Below, piece by piece: positions 6,262-53,153 of a stretch of DNA of 64,000 bases. The stretch comes from an uncultured virus (IMG/VR IMGVR_UViG_3300020047_006293) (Duplodnaviria; Heunggongvirae; Uroviricota; Caudoviricetes). The translations under genes and the position numbers were made by a program. Below the pieces are notes generated by a model. That model did not search any database and had not been told where the DNA came from. It was given only the letters and a program-made list of their open reading frames with translations. The stretch lies in the IMG/VR virus record IMGVR_UViG_3300020047_006293. One strand, 5' to 3'. The stretch's first letter is position 1; every line of letters starts with the position of its first letter.

Positions 6262-7235
6262 ATAGAGAGTAGCCGGGGGGAGTGAATCGCTACCTAAGAA
6301 GTAACCCCGTACTAGTCGGGATAGCTCAAGTAAGATAGCTGCCCCCGCGTACTCTCTATAACAGATAAGACGTATAGCGCTGGGAGTAAAGAGGGTGCTA
6401 GTCACTGAAAACCTATAAATGTGCCGTAAAACCGGTTGGTGGACAAACTAGTGTTTATCGAACTTTCTGCCAGCGCCTTGCGTCTTATCACAAAGTATCA
6501 GTGGCTTTTCCAGCCATCAAAGCCCCACTTGAACGTAGTAGCTTGAATGTAACACGCTATGAAATCAACGGATATAACGTAGGATGCGACCCGATGGCTG
6601 GCGTAGCNNNNNNNNNNNNNNNNNNNNNNNNNNNNNNNNNNNNNNNNNNNNNNNNNNNNNNNNNNNNNNNNNNNNNNNNNNNNNNNNNNNNNNNNNNNNN
6701 NNNNNNTATCACAAAGTATCAGTGGCTTTTCCAGCCATCAAAGCCCCACTTGAACGTAGTAGCTTGAATGTAACACGCTATGAAATCAACGGATATAACG
6801 TAGGATGCGACCCGATGGCTGGCGTAGCTACTGATACATAAAGCGCTGGGGAGCTGGCAGTAATGCCCGTCCTGCAGGCGTGGTTGGCTACTCGGTTCGA
6901 ACCCGACTTGCTGCCAGCTCTCCCACGCTTTAACACATATACGACTCACGCATGGTAGTGAGTGGCGGAAATAGGTAGACGCTTATAAACACTAAGAAGA
7001 ACGATGTATCTGACTAATTCTGACTTATGCCAAAACGTGAAATGAAGGGGTGATACTCAACTAAGTAGCGTACGGTAGCAGATGCCTAACGTGTTTCGAT
7101 GTTTCTTCATGCAGGGTGACAATACGAGTATCGGCAGGTGGCGACTGCAAGTTACGGAGGGCTTCGGCTTTTACGTAGAACATACGCTTCACACTCGTCA
7201 AATCCCTGCCTCACTACCATTCGCGAGCCGTATAT
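6262..7235 (+). ncRNA. Second array of stem-closed RNA units, including tRNA-like elements
   Basis: Units at 6262-6359, 6364-6489, 6716-6837, 6839-6932 and 6937-7235, separated by short A/C-rich linkers (one junction spans the N-gap). Confidence 0.6.
6608..6706. other. Scaffold gap (N run) with duplicated flanks
   Basis: 6486-6607 is repeated at 6707-6828. Confidence 0.95.
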
Positions 7236-8562
7236 ACAACAAACTAACCAAAGGAGGGGACATGTACAGGACTACCAAAGAAAAGTCACTGACGACAAAT
7301 GCTACCTGTCCGGAGTGCGGCTCTAAAACCGTGCTCTACCGTGGCGGCACTCTCACGTGCACTAACTGTGCTCATATCCTATCCTCTCCAAAAGTCAAAA
7401 AGAACAAATACAATGCCGTCCGTACTGTCGCCAAAGATGGTCTAAAACGAGACAGCAAGTTTGAAGCCTCTGTAGCAGATGAACTCTACCTAAGAAAACA
7501 AGCCGGAGACATCAAAGACTACGAGAGCCAGTTCAAAGTAACTATCCCGATCTACAGCCATGACGGTGAAATAGTCCACACGGTTTCTCACAAGATTGAT
7601 TTTAGAATTCATAAGGACGACGGAAGTTTCACACTTTATGAAGCCAAGGGAAAAGAGACGCCTGACTACATATGGCGCAGAAAGCTTCTAGAGGTCGTCT
7701 GGCTACCTGAACACCCCGACCATGAGTATGAGGTCAGGTATCAACATAACAGGAGGAGAGCACGATGAAAGAGCTTGAAGAAGTCACGTTCCCTAAGATC
7801 GTATCTGCTATAAAGCGAGGCGATTTTACCTACACTAGCCAAAAAACTATGACGGTAGACCTTCTGGATAACGTAGTAGCCAACGACTACTCGCGTGATG
7901 GAGAAGAAGTTAAGCCAACACTTATAGCGGTCGAAGTTTCATGGAAACCACTACTATACGAAACCTTTGGCGCAGAAAGATCAGGAGATTAGTAAATGAA
8001 ACTCACCGACATACTCCAACTCCTCACCATCTGGACTATAGGAGCAGGAATCATAGTTTACATAATCAAAGGCGAAATAGACTACCAGAAGTGGACAAAG
8101 AAAACTAAGGAAGGAGACGAGTGATGAACAGCGGAAAAGAGACGACAAACTATAGGTACTTAGTGGTAGAGGAAGGTTCAATTTTGTTTTGCACTGACAG
8201 CAAGAGTCAGCTAGAAACATTCTTGCAAAGTGTGCCAGCAAATAAAGTAGCCGTATATCAAAAACGCTATGGCTCGGAATCACTACTTTGCGAGGTTGAA
8301 TATGAAGACGACAACGAAGAAGGAAAGAGCGATGTCTGATACCCCCAACCAACCAAAGACAGACTGGCTCGATAACTTTGTCAAGGACGACCTCACGTTC
8401 CTAACAGACGGGGAGAAGCAAGCCATCCGTACCCAACTCAAAGAGAGACTACTAGAACACAAAAAGACTTATATAACTGAGCTAAGGTGGAAATACTCTA
8501 GAGCGGAGGAAGCTGTCCCTATATCAGCCCTAACCCAAGTACTAGGAGAAGATGTATGAGTA
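6707..8562 (+). repeat. Direct repeat copy 1 (about 1.86 kb); copy 2 at 47224-49079
   Basis: Identical ORF translations and matching ends at an offset of 40,517. Confidence 0.95.
7262..7768 (+). CDS. Zn-ribbon plus DUF1064-like PD-(D/E)XK nuclease
   Basis: CPECG/CTNC, NKYNA, DSKFEA, IDF and EAKG motifs; GGAGG RBS before ATG 7262. Confidence 0.7.
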   Translation: MYRTTKEKSLTTNATCPECGSKTVLYRGGTLTCTNCAHILSSPKVKKNKYNAVRTVAKDGLKRDSKFEASVADELYLRKQAGDIKDYESQFKVTIPIYSHDGEIVHTVSHKIDFRIHKDDGSFTLYEAKGKETPDYIWRRKLLEVVWLPEHPDHEYEVRYQHNRRRAR

Positions 8563-13684: not shown

Positions 13685-13920
13685 TGGCTAAGGATACAAA
13701 ACCAACCGAGAAGCAGTTTTCGCTCAAGAATACTGAACTAAACCTGATCGGTAACATCAACCGACGACGGGATCAAGCTATCCTAGACGTATTTAGCTAC
13801 ATTGCTATCGAACGCCTAGCATATAACGTTACTGAACACACTCAGTTCCGCACTGACGAGAAGGGTGATCTATATATCTCTGAAATAGAGCCTACCCCTG
13901 AAGAAGTGGAGGTAGCGTAA
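13684..13920 (+). CDS. Hypothetical protein between groES and groEL
   Basis: Coupled ORF with TAATG overlaps at both ends. Confidence 0.6.
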   Translation: MAKDTKPTEKQFSLKNTELNLIGNINRRRDQAILDVFSYIAIERLAYNVTEHTQFRTDEKGDLYISEIEPTPEEVEVA

Positions 13921-15482
13921 TGAACCTACCAAAACGTGAGATCAAAAACATTACCTCTGGTGATGAGGCACGAACTAAGCTACTACACGGTGTAGAGACG
14001 ATCTACGCTGCAGTTAGCTCAACGTATGGGCCAGCTGGTAACAACGTAATACTCGGCATGCCTTATGGTGACTCAACCCTCACGCGTGACGGCGTAACCG
14101 TCGCTAAAAGGGTTATTCTCAAAGATCGTGCCGAGGACAATGCAGTCCAGATCATTCGTCAGGCTAGTGAGAAGACCAACAAGACAGCGGGTGATGGTAC
14201 AACCGCGACTGTCGTCCTGGCTCGTAACCTAGTTAAAGATGGCTACCGACTGATCGCAGCTGGTGAAAATGGTATGTTGCTCAAGAAGCAGATCGCGGCC
14301 GATAGCATAAAGGTGATCGACTTCCTCAAGGATAAATCAGAGGACGCAGAGGGCCACCTGCTAGACGTTGCTACCGTATCAGCTGGCGACCCTGCCATTG
14401 GTGCGCTTGTCAAAGACACCCTGGAGGACATCGGGCAGAACGGTGGTATTACCATTCGTGAGCAAGACTACCCGACTGTTGACGTCGAGAAGATCGGTGG
14501 CTACTACTTCGACAAGGGCTTCTTTGCCCTCAACCAGAAGATAGACCTACCTAACCCACTGATATTCGTCGCTGGCAAGAACATAGCTAGCAACGATGAA
14601 ATGATCCCCCTCCTCAGCCATGTCATTAACAGTGACAACAAGAACCTTGTCATCATTGGTGATGTACGCATGAACTCAGATGCCATGAACACCCTACTTC
14701 GTAACGTCCTAGAGGGTAAGCTGAACGCTGCAGTCGTACCACCACCAGCATTCAACAACGAGGGGCTTCTGTTTATGCAGGACATTGCGACCTACGTTGG
14801 CGCAAAGCTATTTACTGAAGGTGATGATCCAAAGGCTATCAAGGGCGGGCTTGAGTACTTTGGTACGGCAGAACGTGTTGTGGTTACCCAGGACGACGCT
14901 ATCATATTCAAAGGTGCTGGCTCTACTGAGGACATTGAAGTTCGTATCGCTGAGATCGAAGCACAGATCAAGGCTGAGAAGAGCGCACACCGCAAAGACC
15001 AGCTAGAGCAGCGTCTCGCCAAACTAACCGGCAAGATTGCTATCATCAACGTCGGTGGTTCAACCCCTACCGAGATGGAGGAGCTGCGCTACCGCGTCGA
15101 GGACTCTATAGAGGCTACTAAGTCAGCTATGGCAGATGGTGTGCTCCCTGGTGGTGCTACCATGTTGGTTAAAGCTGCAGCCCTCGACATATCACCGATG
15201 TTCAAGAACGCCCTCCTAGATACATTCCGCAAACTGATGTCTAACGCTGCCGAGAACGCTGAGAAGCGCCTAGGACAAGTGCAAGACGCTGAGTATGGGT
15301 TTGGGTTCAACCTACGTGCGATGACTGACCAGCCTATCGATCTACGTGAGTCTGGGGTATGGGACGCGACACGCGCTGTTACGCAGACCGTAGAGAATGC
15401 TACGAGTGCCGCAGGATCACTATTAACTGTTGGGGTGATCGTTGACCCTATCGACCAGGAGGAAGACGATGAGAACTCCTAA
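13920..15482 (+). CDS. groEL: Chaperonin GroEL (Cpn60), phage-encoded
   Basis: TYGPAG, TRDGVTVAK, AGDGTTAT, RVEDSIEATKSA and GVLPGG. Confidence 0.95.
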   Translation: MNLPKREIKNITSGDEARTKLLHGVETIYAAVSSTYGPAGNNVILGMPYGDSTLTRDGVTVAKRVILKDRAEDNAVQIIRQASEKTNKTAGDGTTATVVLARNLVKDGYRLIAAGENGMLLKKQIAADSIKVIDFLKDKSEDAEGHLLDVATVSAGDPAIGALVKDTLEDIGQNGGITIREQDYPTVDVEKIGGYYFDKGFFALNQKIDLPNPLIFVAGKNIASNDEMIPLLSHVINSDNKNLVIIGDVRMNSDAMNTLLRNVLEGKLNAAVVPPPAFNNEGLLFMQDIATYVGAKLFTEGDDPKAIKGGLEYFGTAERVVVTQDDAIIFKGAGSTEDIEVRIAEIEAQIKAEKSAHRKDQLEQRLAKLTGKIAIINVGGSTPTEMEELRYRVEDSIEATKSAMADGVLPGGATMLVKAAALDISPMFKNALLDTFRKLMSNAAENAEKRLGQVQDAEYGFGFNLRAMTDQPIDLRESGVWDATRAVTQTVENATSAAGSLLTVGVIVDPIDQEEDDENS

Positions 15483-19164: not shown

Positions 19165-19260
19165 TCTTGATTTTTAGCACAAAACGTGATTAAATCCTAG
19201 CAATAGCTCTTCGGCTTTCCGAGGGGCTTTTTGTTTTATAAAAAGTAAGGAGATAAAGTC

Positions 19261-39156: not shown

Positions 39157-39405
39157 CCATGGAAATGCGGGATGAACACGAACGATTCGTCGAAGGTGCC
39201 ATCCCCCACGACATCGACCCTGAATCAATCGCTACTCTTATAGCCTTCCAAAAAGCTATAGAAGACAACAAGCGAGCAGAAACTTTACCGGACATCTGGG
39301 ACTGACCTAGCAAGCCTTGACGGCCGGAAAATCAAGCGCATACTAAGAGCAGCACCTTCACATCTCATATGCACGGCCAAGTTAAGTTTAGAAAAGAGTT
39401 TAGTT

Positions 39406-39738
39406 ATGAAAGAAGTTAAAGCCCTGAGAGGTAGGTCATATAGGACCCTCCTTAAAGTTGATTACAATGACGCCCCAACTGGGTTCGCAGTGTTTGTGGC
39501 GCACGATGACCTAGATAGCCTTATAGGGCGTCTGATGCAGATGTGCGACCTCATAGGCGACCAAGAACAGCGCAAAGCGCTCAAGGACACGATTAAGGGT
39601 ATTTCGAGAGAATGGCTCGACGGTATCTACAGTGATTCAGGATACGAAAAATGGACGGGTATAGCTGGCGGGGTTAGACCCGTCGTTATACAGGAAACTG
39701 TGTTTGTCAAACTAAGCGAAGACAAACCAGTCGAATAA
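39406..39738 (+). CDS. Hypothetical protein enclosed by an inverted repeat; homolog at 52758..53105
   Basis: Shared LDxLIxR...LK...ISRxWLDxxYxDxGY motif. Confidence 0.75.
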   Translation: MKEVKALRGRSYRTLLKVDYNDAPTGFAVFVAHDDLDSLIGRLMQMCDLIGDQEQRKALKDTIKGISREWLDGIYSDSGYEKWTGIAGGVRPVVIQETVFVKLSEDKPVE

Positions 39739-39809
39739 TAATCACTTGGCCGTGGTTACGAGATGTGAGATAATGTGCACATACCGCTTCGCAGGTAGCA
39801 CGTATCAGC

Positions 39810-39919
39810 TGTGAGCAGTACGGAGCGAAAGCTCTATCGCTAAACAAGCGGAGGAGCCAATTGATCTTCACCCTATATGGGTAGTTGTCCAGCCGATCAA
39901 CTCCTCCGTACTGCTCATA
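39810..39919 (+). ncRNA. Putative four-way-junction ncRNA, copy 1
   Basis: tgagcagtacgg/ccgtactgctca stem, GAGC-GAAA-GCTC hairpin; covaries with 52573-52701. Confidence 0.65.
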
Positions 39920-40013
39920 CACGCGTGCGACAGGCCCACCATTGACGGTGGGCTGATTGTTTGGTTAAATAGAGGCATACGAGGGTCTAAACTTGTATGC
40001 TTAGGAGCACTAG

Positions 40014-40040
40014 AAGACGCCTCTACCCAGGCGTCTTTTT
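40014..40040 (+). terminator. Intrinsic terminator
   Basis: aagacgcct-ctaccc-aggcgtctt followed by a T tract. Confidence 0.7.
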
Positions 40041-40160: not shown

Positions 40161-40523
40161 ATGTCGGAGTTTGAAGGCCACTTACCAACCATGCGGCTAA
40201 AAGGTGAGGACGGTGAGTTCGACGTCACACCGGAAAATGGGGTGTTGTATCGTCACCTAGGCGAGCGAGCAATCTTTGACAATATCTTTATGGTGACTGG
40301 CCTAAAAGACGATGGCTCGCGTGAGGGTACACCAGTATTTCTCAGAGGCTTTGTAGACGACGCCACTACAGCCCAGATAACGCACTTTATGATCACGAGA
40401 GGGTACGAGTGCCACCTGAACCTTCCGGACGTCATGGAGGCGTTCGTGGATGTCCACAGCAAGTTTTTGGCGCGTGAGACTGCTGATGTTGGTGATACAG
40501 TACCCGATGATTGGCTCGCATAA
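40161..40523 (+). CDS. Hypothetical protein; homolog of 1..345
   Basis: Near-identical translation. Confidence 0.8.
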   Translation: MSEFEGHLPTMRLKGEDGEFDVTPENGVLYRHLGERAIFDNIFMVTGLKDDGSREGTPVFLRGFVDDATTAQITHFMITRGYECHLNLPDVMEAFVDVHSKFLARETADVGDTVPDDWLA

Positions 40524-41236
40524 CACATTGTTGACATAAATATAAGCAAGTGCTAAAATGACGTCGTGTAGAAATGCACCTGAATTCAGCAACTATCGAT
40601 ATGAACCCTAGCGCGCGCTAGGGTCATTTTCGTTATTGTACTTATGCCTTGTTGGTAGTATGCTGAACACATAGTCAAGCATGGACTCGCAACTTACTTG
40701 TTGGTTAGCACAATCTATCTTTAAAACTTTTGTTTTTGTAACATAAAAAACGTCTCTCACTGACCGCCGACATGCTATAACGGCGGTATTCTTTTTGTCT
40801 TGAAATAACAGTGGTATTTTTATTCCCACTAGCTGCCCCTTCCCTGTAGCTATAGTAGCTAAGGGCTAGGGTTTCGATTTACAAGTTCTAGGCAGTGAGA
40901 GTGGTTCATGTGCATTGCAGTGACCTGGTTGACGTACAGACAACCTTACGGTTGTCGCTTAGGGCTATATTATCAGAGCCAGGTATTATGCATTGAACAC
41001 GATCTACCTATCATCACTCGTGCCTACAGTTTTTTGCTAGAGCTGCGAACTAGATTATTGTAAATATTTTTGCACATTTAGACATAACTGTTATAATGAA
41101 AACAGCGTTAGAGGTCGCCCCGATGTAAAAGTCGGGGTTATTCTTTTGTCTAATTTATACCCCCTACTAGGATTTCTGCGTTAGAGATCTTTTCAGTTAC
41201 TCTACATCATAGCGCATAGCTTACTTTTGTTCAACC

Positions 41237-41340: not shown

Positions 41341-41369
41341 TTGACCTACTCAACCGCTTGTGCTACAAT
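41341..41369 (+). promoter_or_regulatory. Promoter with AACCGCTTGTGCTA spacer motif
   Basis: TTGACC-17-TACAAT; motif repeated at 45120-45149 and 46110-46138. Confidence 0.7.
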
Positions 41370-41395
41370 GGAAGTAAATCAACGAAAGGATTTGT

Positions 41396-41959
41396 ATGAC
41401 AAAGAAGTTGTCGGATATTGTCAAAAAGAACGAGTTAGCTAAGTTCAACAGGGCTGACGAGTTCCTTGAGTTCGTAAACCAAGAGCCACCTGCAATATTC
41501 ATTGAGAAACATCCGATGGCTAAGGGTGTAGACTATATCCCTATCGGCAACACCGAGCTTACTATGGATAAGATATTCCAGTACTGGGGAGTCGAAGTGT
41601 TGAAAACGGAAGTAATGTTTAACGCTATAGCAGTCACGGTCAGGGTGAACTATAAACACCCTATATCTGGAGAGTGGATGCACCAGGACGGAGTTGGCGC
41701 AGTAGGTGTTCAGACTGATAAAGGATTCACGGCTGCTGATCTAGCTCATATAAAGCAAGATGCCGTGATGAAAGCCTTACCAGCTGCAAAGTCGTTCGCT
41801 ATCAAGGACGCAGTTGATCACATTGGTAAGATATTTGGCCGTGACCTCAACAGAAAGAACACCTTTGACTTTACCCCCTCATACGGAACCCAAGCCGTCA
41901 AGGACGAGTTAGAGATAAAGAAAGAGAAACTAAGGAACATAGTTAGGAAACCTCAATGA
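41396..41959 (+). CDS. Rad52/Sak/ERF-like single-strand annealing protein
   Basis: YIPIG, DGVGA and KIFGRDL motifs; next to an exonuclease. Confidence 0.65.
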   Translation: MTKKLSDIVKKNELAKFNRADEFLEFVNQEPPAIFIEKHPMAKGVDYIPIGNTELTMDKIFQYWGVEVLKTEVMFNAIAVTVRVNYKHPISGEWMHQDGVGAVGVQTDKGFTAADLAHIKQDAVMKALPAAKSFAIKDAVDHIGKIFGRDLNRKNTFDFTPSYGTQAVKDELEIKKEKLRNIVRKPQ

Positions 41960-44761: not shown

Positions 44762-45133
44762 ATGCAATTGCAACCTAAAAAGCCCTGTAAATGGTGCGGA
44801 GAGTTCCCCGCCCGGCACTTTGCCTACCAGTGCAGGGAAAACCCCAAAGTAAAATCCTACAGAATCCCACAAATAGGCAAAGAAACAATCGAGTATAATA
44901 AATGGCGTGACACTGTAGCAAAACCGTACTTAGATAAAAAGTATGGTCGTGTCTGCCAGGCGTGTTTTGGGGCTAGATGTGGTAACAAGCAACTAGATGT
45001 TGAACATACGAAGAGTAGAGGCGGTCACCACGAGCTAAAAAAGGTACTGAGCAACGTAACTTATATGGGTCGTTACCCCTGTCACTTTGAGAAAACTAAC
45101 AATATCAAGCACGAAAGTCTTGACAAAACATAA
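44762..45133 (+). CDS. HNH/NinG-like nuclease
   Basis: CKWC, CQAC and H...N...CH arrangement. Confidence 0.55.
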   Translation: MQLQPKKPCKWCGEFPARHFAYQCRENPKVKSYRIPQIGKETIEYNKWRDTVAKPYLDKKYGRVCQACFGARCGNKQLDVEHTKSRGGHHELKKVLSNVTYMGRYPCHFEKTNNIKHESLDKT

Positions 45134-45149
45134 CCGCTTGTGCTATACT
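45120..45149 (+). promoter_or_regulatory. Promoter with AACCGCTTGTGCTA motif
   Basis: TTGACA-18-TATACT. Confidence 0.65.
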
Positions 45150-45331
45150 TCCAGTACAGTCATGAAAGGATTGTATAAGCCTCGGGGATGTAGATAGCCC
45201 CACGCCATAAACGCTACAAGGCACGAAGCTTAGGAACACAAATCGGCTAGTCTCCGCTGGACTGGTGATGCCCACCCTTACCAGCCCAGCGGAGACTAGC
45301 CGATACATACCAACTAACAGGAGAAATCCAA

Positions 45332-46109: not shown

Positions 46110-46138
46110 TTGCATGATTCAACCGCTTGTGCTACAAT
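46110..46138 (+). promoter_or_regulatory. Promoter with AACCGCTTGTGCTA motif
   Basis: TTGCAT-17-TACAAT, just after a terminator hairpin (aaaagccg...cggctttt). Confidence 0.65.
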
Positions 46139-46164
46139 GAGTACATATCAATGAAAGGATTAGT

Positions 46165-46706
46165 ATGAAAGACCTACAAATATACTGCAAGCGAGTGATA
46201 GTTGAGGCCGACAGTGCAGATAGTAACCTAGTAACGCTAGAAGGATTCGATCTTAGTGAAGTCACTTCAAATTTCACCGTAGCTGAGATACTAGACAACA
46301 TGGAACTTTCCGACATTCACGAGTACGTCACTAGCAAAGTAGAAGATGGAGAGATGGACTCATGAACCTCACCAAACTACAGAAGGTGGTCTACAATGCC
46401 TACCTCGAAGATAGCCGGGTAGTTGACGACGACGCGCTGCTACAGGCTACCGTGTGGAGTAAATACTGGGACGACCGAAAGAGCCTCTACGAAAACCTCA
46501 AGATATGTCCACGTGCCGAGAGTCTTTCACGCCGTCGCCGAGAACTTTACATCATGGGGCTTATCACCTACTCGGATTCCAAGCTCAAAGAGCGTACGGA
46601 CGCATTCAAAAACGAACGTGACATGCACAGCGACAATTGGTTCACCGCATGGATGAATGAGACAACAGGCCAACTAGAAAAACTTACAGTAAGGACAAAA
46701 CCATGA
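46165..46706 (+). CDS. Two hypothetical proteins (46165..46365 and 46362..46706)
   Basis: Coupled ORFs with RBS. Confidence 0.6.
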
Positions 46707-47117: not shown

Positions 47118-47227
47118 GATAGAGCGTAGTAGTGCTGGCCATGTAGCTCAGGAGAGAGCGGTAGGTCGCACCTACGGTCGGGGACGAGTTGCAACTACAC
47201 CCCATGGCTAGCACCATGCGCTCTATC
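47118..47227 (+). ncRNA. Degenerate tRNA-like RNA within an extended stem
   Basis: GGCCATG/CATGGCT acceptor, TAGCTCAG...GAGC D arm, GTAGG/CCTAC arm, non-canonical T arm. Confidence 0.55.
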
Positions 47228-49079
47228 ACAAAGTATCAGTGGCTTTTCCAGCCATCAAAGCCCCACTTGAACGTAGTAGCTTGAATGTAACACGCTATGA
47301 AATCAACGGATATAACGTAGGATGCGACCCGATGGCTGGCGTAGCTACTGATACATAAAGCGCTGGGGAGCTGGCAGTAATGCCCGTCCTGCAGGCGTGG
47401 TTGGCTACTCGGTTCGAACCCGACTTGCTGCCAGCTCTCCCACGCTTTAACACATATACGACTCACGCATGGTAGTGAGTGGCGGAAATAGGTAGACGCT
47501 TATAAACACTAAGAAGAACGATGTATCTGACTAATTCTGACTTATGCCAAAACGTGAAATGAAGGGGTGATACTCAACTAAGTAGCGTACGGTAGCAGAT
47601 GCCTAACGTGTTTCGATGTTTCTTCATGCAGGGTGACAATACGAGTATCGGCAGGTGGCGACTGCAAGTTACGGAGGGCTTCGGCTTTTACGTAGAACAT
47701 ACGCTTCACACTCGTCAAATCCCTGCCTCACTACCATTCGCGAGCCGTATATACAACAAACTAACCAAAGGAGGGGACATGTACAGGACTACCAAAGAAA
47801 AGTCACTGACGACAAATGCTACCTGTCCGGAGTGCGGCTCTAAAACCGTGCTCTACCGTGGCGGCACTCTCACGTGCACTAACTGTGCTCATATCCTATC
47901 CTCTCCAAAAGTCAAAAAGAACAAATACAATGCCGTCCGTACTGTCGCCAAAGATGGTCTAAAACGAGACAGCAAGTTTGAAGCCTCTGTAGCAGATGAA
48001 CTCTACCTAAGAAAACAAGCCGGAGACATCAAAGACTACGAGAGCCAGTTCAAAGTAACTATCCCGATCTACAGCCATGACGGTGAAATAGTCCACACGG
48101 TTTCTCACAAGATTGATTTTAGAATTCATAAGGACGACGGAAGTTTCACACTTTATGAAGCCAAGGGAAAAGAGACGCCTGACTACATATGGCGCAGAAA
48201 GCTTCTAGAGGTCGTCTGGCTACCTGAACACCCCGACCATGAGTATGAGGTCAGGTATCAACATAACAGGAGGAGAGCACGATGAAAGAGCTTGAAGAAG
48301 TCACGTTCCCTAAGATCGTATCTGCTATAAAGCGAGGCGATTTTACCTACACTAGCCAAAAAACTATGACGGTAGACCTTCTGGATAACGTAGTAGCCAA
48401 CGACTACTCGCGTGATGGAGAAGAAGTTAAGCCAACACTTATAGCGGTCGAAGTTTCATGGAAACCACTACTATACGAAACCTTTGGCGCAGAAAGATCA
48501 GGAGATTAGTAAATGAAACTCACCGACATACTCCAACTCCTCACCATCTGGACTATAGGAGCAGGAATCATAGTTTACATAATCAAAGGCGAAATAGACT
48601 ACCAGAAGTGGACAAAGAAAACTAAGGAAGGAGACGAGTGATGAACAGCGGAAAAGAGACGACAAACTATAGGTACTTAGTGGTAGAGGAAGGTTCAATT
48701 TTGTTTTGCACTGACAGCAAGAGTCAGCTAGAAACATTCTTGCAAAGTGTGCCAGCAAATAAAGTAGCCGTATATCAAAAACGCTATGGCTCGGAATCAC
48801 TACTTTGCGAGGTTGAATATGAAGACGACAACGAAGAAGGAAAGAGCGATGTCTGATACCCCCAACCAACCAAAGACAGACTGGCTCGATAACTTTGTCA
48901 AGGACGACCTCACGTTCCTAACAGACGGGGAGAAGCAAGCCATCCGTACCCAACTCAAAGAGAGACTACTAGAACACAAAAAGACTTATATAACTGAGCT
49001 AAGGTGGAAATACTCTAGAGCGGAGGAAGCTGTCCCTATATCAGCCCTAACCCAAGTACTAGGAGAAGATGTATGAGTA
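47224..49079 (+). repeat. Direct repeat copy 2 of 6707-8562 (RNA units, DUF1064-like gene at 47779..48285, small ORFs)
   Basis: Identical translations and matching ends. Confidence 0.95.
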
Positions 49080-52345: not shown

Positions 52346-52572
52346 TGTATTTACAAACTCAAATATGCTATAATGAAGGAGTCAACGTGATACTTCCACA
52401 CAAGTATCTCATTTCTTAACGCTTCTATTTGGTGTCCAAAAGGCACCTACCCTGGGTTTTTCATAAGACCCTCCTTTATTTTGGACAAGCGGCCCATATA
52501 ACAAGCTTCTGCCGAGGTCTTGCTATGGTTTATGTTCTAAACCCCGCTGTCCAAATAGGGGCGTTAAATTTC

Positions 52573-52701
52573 ATGTGAGTAGTACGGAGCGAAAGCTCTT
52601 GAGAATTTTTCTAAGGCGGAGGAGCCAGTTGATCTACCACTACCTATTTTGGTAAGTGGAGCGCGAGATTGATCGGATCAACTCCTCCGTACTACTCACA
52701 T
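52573..52701 (+). ncRNA. Putative four-way-junction ncRNA, copy 2
   Basis: tgagtagtacgg/ccgtactactca; compensatory change relative to copy 1. Confidence 0.65.
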
Positions 52702-52757
52702 ACTTCACAATTCACATCTCATATGCACGGCCAAGTACAAGAATAAGGAACATACAT

Positions 52758-53105
52758 ATGCTCAATACAGCACAAGAAAAAGAACGCGCAGAGCAACCGA
52801 TGCGCGCATACAATCCGTTGATAAACAACGGAGCGTATTTCGTATTGGTTAGCCATCGAGAGCTAGATACTCTCATCGCTAGGTTTATGCACCTAGCTGA
52901 ACTAGACAGTGACATAGAACACCGCAACGCCATGAAAGGCGAGCTGAAATCAATCTCGCGAAATTGGCTCGATAATCTATACGAAGACGCGGGGTACAAG
53001 AACCATTGCCTTGACAACACTGGACAAGTAGTTGACTTAGTTGGTATGTCGACAGCACCAGATCAGCCCACATCGACCAAATTGCGGCTCCGCACCGTAA
53101 TCTAA
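52758..53105 (+). CDS. Hypothetical protein enclosed by an inverted repeat; homolog of 39406..39738
   Basis: AAGGA RBS before ATG 52758; shared motif. Confidence 0.75.
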   Translation: MLNTAQEKERAEQPMRAYNPLINNGAYFVLVSHRELDTLIARFMHLAELDSDIEHRNAMKGELKSISRNWLDNLYEDAGYKNHCLDNTGQVVDLVGMSTAPDQPTSTKLRLRTVI

Positions 53106-53153
53106 ACGGAACTAACCGCCTTGGCCGTGGTTACGAGATGTGAACAATTAACA

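Follow-up and report, generated by a model that had tools for sequence, protein, structure and literature searches.

What is the compact, stably folding element that occurs once in each of two related phages, and to what is it related? The window, by which we mean the whole stretch of 64,000 nt analysed here, consists of two related TM7-like phage genomes in tandem that differ in their structural modules. Positions 1-347 and 40179-40525 are 90.5% identical, a block of 1,856 bp is fully identical between the phages (6707-8562 and 47224-49079), the portal protein has 30% identity to a TM7 phage portal, and phage 1 encodes a tyrosine-type integrase at 1001-1861. The junction between the two phages lies near 40179. 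There is a run of Ns at 6608-6706, and a 139-nt repeat across it (6469-6607 versus 6690-6828, 88% identity) looks like an assembly seam; both true tandem prophages and an assembly chimera are possible origins of the tandem arrangement. To our knowledge, almost no non-coding RNAs have been described from CPR bacteria and their phages.

Several other features of these genomes were observed along the way. The terminase large subunit is split in both phages, into two overlapping ORFs in phage 1 (11523-13071) and into two ORFs with a 68-aa ORF in between in phage 2 (56667-58289); a frameshift, an intron or intein, and a true split are all possible. Phage 1 also encodes a GroEL-like chaperonin (13920-15482; phrog_5725, E 2e-106). 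A repeated 50-nt motif containing TTGTGCTACAAT, which resembles an extended -10 promoter, stands ahead of early genes at 41350-41399, 45130-45179, and 46119-46168, and a family of terminator-like repeats is located at 19191, 25514, and 32935.

Two copies of a structured element

Copy A of the element is located on the + strand at 39810-39919, at the right end of phage 1 past the lysis genes, and copy B, also on the + strand, at 52573-52701 in the variable region of phage 2. A preliminary description of this DNA had given these positions, which are correct for both copies, and had proposed that the element is a functional non-coding RNA. Each core is closed by a stem, P1, formed in copy A by pairing of 39810-39822 with 39907-39919. 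Within it lie block 1 (GGAGCGAAAGCTCT; 39822-39835 in copy A and 52586-52599 in copy B), which in both copies is identical to the consensus of a host chromosomal family described below, and block 2 (GCGGAGGAGCC at 39848-39858 in copy A; 52616-52626 in copy B). An invariant strand, GATCAACTCCTCCGTACT, follows on the 3' side (39895-39912 and, with the same sequence, 52676-52693) and supplies the 3' strands of both P4 and P1. The window contains exactly two occurrences of this 18-nt 3' motif and two of a 17-nt 5' motif, GTACGGAGCGAAAGCTC, all on the + strand; 0.09 and 0.19 occurrences, respectively, are expected when up to three mismatches are allowed.

Folded as RNA, the + strand of copy A reaches -50.6 kcal/mol (z -7.3) and that of copy B -55.2 kcal/mol (z -6.4), and for each copy none of 200 shuffled sequences was as stable. 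The - strand is nearly as stable, with z-scores of -7.2 and -4.7 for the two copies; G-U pairs and a GAAA loop are present on the + strand only, which is the strand of nearly all genes here.

In a two-sequence alignment (A4), each copy forms all 29 of the modelled pairs (P1, P2, and the two halves of P4); one of these changes on both sides, from C-G to U-A, and another differs as G-U versus G-C. The compensatory C-G to U-A change had been reported for the closing stem and is indeed present between the two copies, as are the variable hairpins, which are unlike in sequence and length and keep their hairpin form. With no more than two full copies, covariation within the phage form carries no statistical weight, and the shuffle control on A4 is without power at n=2 (the observed value is reached by 250 of 500 shuffles). 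When the two copies are compared, the flanks have diverged to approximately chance level, the core stems are 100% kept, and the differences are concentrated at the hairpin tips. Parts of these phages are also found in two wastewater runs, which are not on record as RNA. A 256-nt contig from run X2 spans 52381-52635, and its listed differences from copy B all fall at 52599-52615, within the variable hairpin.

The search of Rfam that had been suggested as a check on the element was run, and no family matches either copy. With Rfam 15, there were no matches in the whole window at gathering score, and at E ≤10 no family matched the element itself in either copy; matches at this level were confined to neighbouring sequence, with CRISPR-DR32 beside copy B (E 0.29) and isrK after copy A (E 5.5). 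No match was obtained when the two regions were compared by blastn with 50,697 phage records. A first pattern scan of IMG/VR returned 7 stretches, none with the remainder of the element, and a second returned 45, none with GATCAACTCCTCC downstream and one (L043) with CTCCTCC only; the matches from both scans are only chance matches. The phage-form model, R1, had no match among 151 Saccharimonadales genomes at E ≤0.01, and a locus carrying a relative of the endolysin (L075) is also without the element. In the searches made there is thus no full-length relative of the phage form, and two copies and one partial variant are known; a full-text literature search, covering sources other than subscription journals, found no publication on such an RNA. 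The observation of a conserved, strand-specific structured element without a match in catalogued families is supported.

Both copies are located close to a homologous gene. Gene X (110 aa; 39406-39738, + strand) lies upstream of copy A, and gene X' (115 aa; 52758-53105, + strand) is 56 nt downstream of copy B, such that the order is X then RNA in phage 1 and RNA then X' in phage 2. The two proteins have 46% identity over 57 residues. The leader of gene X contains a 26-nt motif (39357-39382, + strand) that is repeated identically just past copy B and ahead of gene X' (52711-52736, + strand). In a large protein collection there are three further relatives only; no Pfam family matched, and tblastn against the 50,697 phage records gave no match. 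The predicted fold is a strand followed by two helices (beta-alpha-alpha), at low confidence (pLDDT 55.7). This is an order of elements that we take to be that of ribbon-helix-helix regulators, and gene X may, as judged from the model, encode a regulator of this kind.

Three gene X-bearing loci elsewhere (L067, L068, which is on the same contig as L070, and L069) are all without the RNA element. We also note that a promoter-like motif past the gene X stop codon, CTTGGCCGTGGT, is conserved among the X-bearing loci (the window and these three), and that the cargo 3' of it varies by locus, being either the RNA, a different small hairpin RNA, or an ORF of 52 aa that looks membrane-like; at L069, a different small hairpin and a terminator come after the common motif. 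Within the window, a 24-nt stretch with the promoter-like site is found 3' of both genes, at 39745-39768 for X and at 53120-53143 for X'. In phage 1, this site (TTGGCC, 17 nt, GATAAT, with a TG; 39746-39774, + strand) lies upstream of copy A, and a terminator-like hairpin is located 14 nt past copy A (39933-39954, + strand), with a second one at 40012-40039. In phage 2, there is nothing resembling the copy A unit downstream of the 24-nt stretch at 53120-53143.

Competing folds of the core

The core had been drawn as a four-way junction that includes a GAGC-GAAA-GCUC hairpin, with the additional suggestion that CUCCUCCG can pair with either GUACGGAG or CGGAGGAG. This last point is borne out: the CTCCG of the invariant 3' strand has two possible pairing registers in both copies, and energies could be computed for each of them. 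The four-way junction, on the other hand, is not the predicted optimum. When enforced, it is possible in both copies at an energy cost, lying 2.9 kcal/mol (copy A) or 3.5 kcal/mol (copy B) above the minimum-energy fold, a three-way arrangement, and the fold energies likewise place the GAGC-GAAA-GCUC hairpin outside the predicted optimum. In the minimum-energy fold, P1 is extended by GGAG/CUCC, a GCUCU/GGAGC pairing encloses the variable hairpin, and P4 forms in its inner half only. This fold accounts for ~0.99 of the ensemble of copy A; that of copy B is mixed, at ~0.6 versus 0.4.

Since the three-way fold is favoured by only 2.9-3.5 kcal/mol, two conformers are plausible, and because the folds are close in energy and the ensemble of copy B is mixed, the alternative pairing is real in the energy model. 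Comparison of the copies favours neither fold because all of the segments concerned are identical in both. AGCUCU serves in the host family as the 5' strand of another hairpin, one that is supported by covariation, and in a second subtype of the family with GACAC at that site (e.g., L087 and L104), the GAAA hairpin cannot form. With its GNRA hairpin and a junction that can be drawn as four-way, the phage RNA is similar to twister-sister and other four-way-junction ribozymes or riboswitches, but it differs from them in that no covariance model matched and the four-way fold is non-optimal.

As an aside, a TTG located 4 nt past GGAGGAG opens short frames, of 7 and 8 codons (39858-39884 and 52627-52656). 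The corresponding peptides, MIFTLYG and MIYHYLFW, are aromatic-rich and mutually unrelated, and these frames probably arose by chance.

A related scaffold beside host tRNA genes

When one genome per species was scanned with a pattern, 12 stretches were obtained, including one (L059) in a Saccharimonadales genome; at this locus, Rfam matched only the adjoining tRNA. BLAST with a host element (L066) over 401 Saccharimonadales genomes gave matches in 117 (~29%), a count that takes in one genome flagged as unpublished (G308) and is 116 of 400 without it. A covariance model of the host family, R2, finds 8 copies in one genome and 7 in another, both of them 0.6-0.8 Mb in size. These two were the only genomes with a match when R2 was run over 151 Patescibacteria genomes, and both are also within the 401-genome Saccharimonadales sample.

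The family is characterized by a long hairpin (Stem B) of 12 pairs, in which 95.7% of 372 cells are paired and both-sided changes are seen at 9 of the 12 pairs (44 cells). None of 500 shuffles reached any of the observed measures, slid controls were at most 43% paired, and RNAalifold independently recovered the same helix. A C-A and a G-A mismatch break the helix, each with an invariant A.

The connection between this family and the phage copies is provided by two blocks. The consensus core of 31 host sequences reads GGTTCGG-T-GGAGCGAA-AGCTCTCGCAGAAGCTTGCTTCGAGAAAGCT-TGAGCGGAGGAG, and both the 14-nt block GGAGCGAAAGCUCU and the block GCGGAGGAG of the phage RNAs are the same as the host-family consensus and occur in the same order. 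In an alignment of two phage and two host sequences (A3), GGAGCGAAAGCTCT and GGAGGAGC are invariant, and the pair of blocks that defines the family, GGAGCGAA-AGCUCU and then GAGCGGAGGAG, is found in the phage copies just as it is in the A6 consensus. Model R1 scores 16.6 bits on the host element L066 (E 0.025). Conversely, R2 gives only 8.7 and 7.9 bits on the phage copies (E 2.2 and 3.3), low scores that are due to the phage form being without the long hairpin of the family: Stem B, with its conserved C-A and G-A mismatches, is absent in the phage copies, which have a short unrelated hairpin instead. As R2 is not significant on the phage copies, the kinship rests on the two short identical blocks. 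We take these common blocks of 14 nt and 9-11 nt as evidence for common descent or module exchange, short of proving that the phage form is a member of the family. The best R2 score in the window (8.9 bits, E 1.9, not significant) falls on an unrelated stretch past the first terminator-like hairpin of copy A, at 39954-40019, where a hairpin and its flanks are faintly reminiscent of the host scaffold.

Beyond the blocks, the phage form and the Saccharimonadales tRNA-linked family have in common the host clade, a setting in mobile DNA, and duplicated YGGAG segments. Unlike the host elements, the phage form is without the long covarying hairpin, a tRNA neighbour, a partial T-arm copy, and an 18-nt tRNA 3' repeat, and has instead a closing stem of 13-17 bp and a long P4 arm. 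Consistent with this, ARAGORN found no tRNA genes in the 64,000-nt window, so that the tRNA placement of the host type is absent there, and the T-loop-like pattern GTTCRANTC has 3 matches in the window versus 4.0 expected, none of them near the copies.

In the host genomes, a tRNA gene lies at most ~270 nt upstream of the element and on the same strand in 21 of 28 loci, and also at L059 and L066; at least 10 different tRNAs are represented among these upstream genes. Directly 3' of the scaffold, 19 of 31 units have an exact repeat, 10-20 nt long, of the 3' end of the upstream tRNA. The repeat usually begins at the last two bases of the T-loop and extends to the CCA (an 18-nt copy), and the spacing between the tRNA 3' end and its copy is 149-193 nt. 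The bases just 5' of the scaffold were compared with the cognate T-stem 5' strand plus TTCG, and 48 of 75 are identical versus 39.1 in shuffles, with 4 of 2000 shuffles as high and three rows mis-anchored. With a partial T-arm on its 5' side and a copy of the tRNA 3' end on the other, the scaffold therefore looks inserted at approximately position 58 of a duplicated T-arm.

Integrase target sites in tRNA genes reportedly fall into sublocation classes, the T-loop being one of them. The host-family repeat is like that of T-loop integration, as it starts in the T-loop and ends with CCA, a pattern known from elements that restore the 3' end of the tRNA. At ordinary attR sites, however, the T-arm is intact, whereas in the host family a structured scaffold of ~95 nt is located within the T-loop of the partial copy. 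The phage copies differ from T-loop integration sites in having no tRNA part.

Individual loci add to this picture. L091 (1449-1753) contains two tandem units of different subtype behind one tRNA-Arg, as expected for repeated integration; both units close with a tRNA 3' copy and a separate terminator-like hairpin. In genome G099 (L106, G099:C3:268500-273700), the distance from tRNA-Pro to the scaffold-plus-repeat is 4.65 kb. The cargo of this element consists of a 533-aa large serine recombinase beside the tRNA, an HTH protein, and a DUF4352 protein, and the element is closed by the scaffold and a 16-nt tRNA 3' repeat. The tRNA and repeat placement, the tandem units, and the G099 element together indicate that the family marks the far end of tRNA-integrated elements, which are of very different sizes, down to gene-less units of ~150 nt. 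An empty-site test for host insertion, in which relatives of the flank were sought at the DNA level in 10 family members, found none. A further arrangement is seen at L087 (~1600-1920), where a tRNA-Lys 3' copy lies ~70 nt upstream of the scaffold and a tRNA-Lys predicted by ARAGORN ~260 nt upstream; either an additional unit or an insertion into the tRNA region could account for this. A structured, covarying scaffold between the halves of a T-arm goes beyond ordinary attP/attB logic and is not explained by it.

A candidate RNA module of mobile DNA

As the conserved core is also present in multiple copies beside host tRNA genes, we think it probable that the phage element is a novel RNA module of mobile DNA. 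The blocks common to the phage RNA and to a host family that marks the ends of elements lead us to read the phage RNA as a phage-borne variant of such a mobile-element module, probably functioning as a trans-acting ligand RNA; to this reading as a whole we assign, tentatively, a probability of about 0.42. Structure, conservation, genomic context, and common blocks are direct observations. The initial proposal of a functional non-coding RNA is retained in part: the conserved structured element, the promoter- and terminator-like sites of copy A, and the covarying relatives speak for it, and the junction and GAAA hairpin as drawn do not.

In the mechanism that we propose, both elements would be RNA genes of the + strand, ~110-130 nt long and very stable, with one in each of the related Saccharibacteria (TM7-type) phages. 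The element of phage 1 would be a separate putative transcription unit comprising the promoter-like site, a leader of ~28 nt, the structured core, and the terminator-like hairpin. The RNA is envisaged as a long closing stem around a multi-helix junction, with hairpin tips that are free to vary; the stems would act as the scaffold, and the invariant purine-rich blocks (GGAGCGAA-AGCUCU and GCGGAGGAG) would be placed at the junction, where they may form a surface recognised by a protein or by the anti-Shine-Dalgarno end of the ribosome, common to the hosts. The duplicated CGGAG segments could give rise to two conformers that hide or expose GGAGGAG. This motif is Shine-Dalgarno-like, and the 3' strand GGAUCAACUCCUCC, its partner, presumably resembles the 16S 3' end; a 16S gene for comparison of the anti-Shine-Dalgarno was not found in either G001 or G252. 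The phage RNA would most likely act in trans, and a host factor is likelier than an element-specific partner because the blocks are common to elements with different recombinases. We infer transcription, action in trans, and the existence of a ligand. Several observations count against the trans-acting ligand RNA: covariation between two phage copies has no statistical weight, R2 scores these copies poorly, the covarying host hairpin is absent from them, and the - strand is nearly as stable as the + strand. In addition, the order of gene X and the RNA differs between the phages, the three other X-bearing loci are without the RNA, and the placement of the host family beside att sites also fits a role at the level of DNA.

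A role as DNA is unlikely in our estimation. The inverted repeats would then be an att-like or operator site, or the termini of a mobile unit that is small and non-autonomous, and the structure a by-product of dyad symmetry. This would fit the position of the related host elements exactly at the integration junction, between the partial T-arm copy and the 18-nt tRNA 3' repeat, as well as the large serine recombinase in one full-size host element, the near-perfect inverted repeat of 13-17 bp that constitutes P1, the different placement of the two phage copies relative to gene X, and the ability of the - strand to fold about as well as the + strand. However, the variable hairpins of the phage copies keep their pairing with unrelated sequences, and the host hairpin covaries at 9 of its 12 pairs, which is typical of single-stranded folding and not of protein half-sites. 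Furthermore, there are no target-site duplications, the likeness between phage 1 and phage 2 stopping 38 nt and 13 nt from the ends of the element (as judged by eye), the window is devoid of tRNA genes, and no recombinase gene is seen anywhere close to copy B. A cis-acting RNA switch, in which a ligand or protein would toggle CUCCG between GUACGGAG and CGGAGGAG and thereby control read-through or translation of the neighbour, is distinctly improbable. Two folds within ~3 kcal/mol of each other, the mixed ensemble of copy B, the duplicated YGGAG segments that are also seen in host elements, the location of copy B 56 nt upstream of gene X', and the terminator-like hairpin closely 3' of copy A are all consistent with a switch, but copy A is downstream of gene X rather than upstream, no element-terminator complementarity suitable for an anti-terminator was seen by eye, no riboswitch family matched, and the Shine-Dalgarno-like GGAGGAG with its TTG opens only the 7- and 8-codon frames, whose peptides are unrelated.

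By analogy with self-cleaving ribozymes, which are often near phage and integrase genes, the element might be a new class of these, although we consider this very unlikely. The compact multi-helix junction, the invariant junction nucleotides, the mobile-element setting, and the invariant non-canonical positions of the host hairpin (C-A and G-A, with the A invariant) would suit a ribozyme; against this, no Rfam ribozyme family matched at E ≤10, there is no sign of a cleavage site, and the long purine-rich invariant blocks look like a binding surface rather than a small catalytic core. Least probable of all the readings considered is that the element has no function, being a stable palindrome-rich sequence that was duplicated and exchanged between phages together with gene X. 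That there are two full copies only, with none in the 50,697 phage records, the IMG/VR scans, or the 151 genomes searched with R1, would agree with this, but core stems that are 100% kept between flanks at about chance likeness, differences that are confined largely to hairpin tips, and blocks of 14 nt and 9-11 nt identical to the consensus of a widespread family all speak against it.

Other candidates were tried and rejected. The position of the element is inconsistent for a riboswitch or cis leader class (B is upstream of X' and A downstream of X), and no anti-terminator pairing was apparent by eye. For a type III toxin-antitoxin RNA, a tandem array would be needed and there is a single unit per site, with two matches in the window only. 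For a MITE-like transposon, P1 could pass as terminal repeats, but there is neither a flanking duplication nor clean boundaries.

Returning to the preferred reading, an RNA module of mobile DNA, we compared it with known systems. GOLLD, ROOL, and HEARO are orphan structured non-coding RNA motifs of phages and mobile elements that came from comparative genomics. The phage RNA resembles them as a conserved multi-stem RNA of unknown function with variable hairpin tips; it is much smaller, and has no Rfam match. IS110 bridge RNAs and IS605 omega RNAs (reRNAs) are guide-type RNAs encoded at transposon ends. Similar to these, the host family has a conserved scaffold joined to a variable segment that is the integration target, in this case the tRNA 3' end; in contrast to them, no DEDD or TnpB gene is seen adjoining, and the full-size element has a large serine recombinase. 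The phage copies differ from guide-type RNAs in being without a target-like tail. Because the scaffold lies between T-arm halves and has a variable 3' tail identical to the target, it could specify or bridge that target: the scaffold RNA would participate in site-specific integration with the recombinase, and the phage form would be the module around a palindromic, non-tRNA site. We regard this as highly speculative, and as less probable still than a ribozyme. If true, it would allow easy retargeting among at least 10 different tRNAs and would be a novel form of recombination in which RNA assists serine or tyrosine recombinases.

The phage element is in itself a compact and very stable RNA candidate outside catalogued families, and it led to a multi-copy, covarying family on the tRNA side, with 7-8 copies in genomes of <1 Mb. 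From where this family sits, in a duplicated T-arm, one may suspect that RNA structure and tRNA-targeted integration are linked in a way that ordinary att-site logic does not cover. If the host element is RNA, these reduced genomes and the mobile DNA in them would contain a major, hitherto uncharacterised class of RNA.
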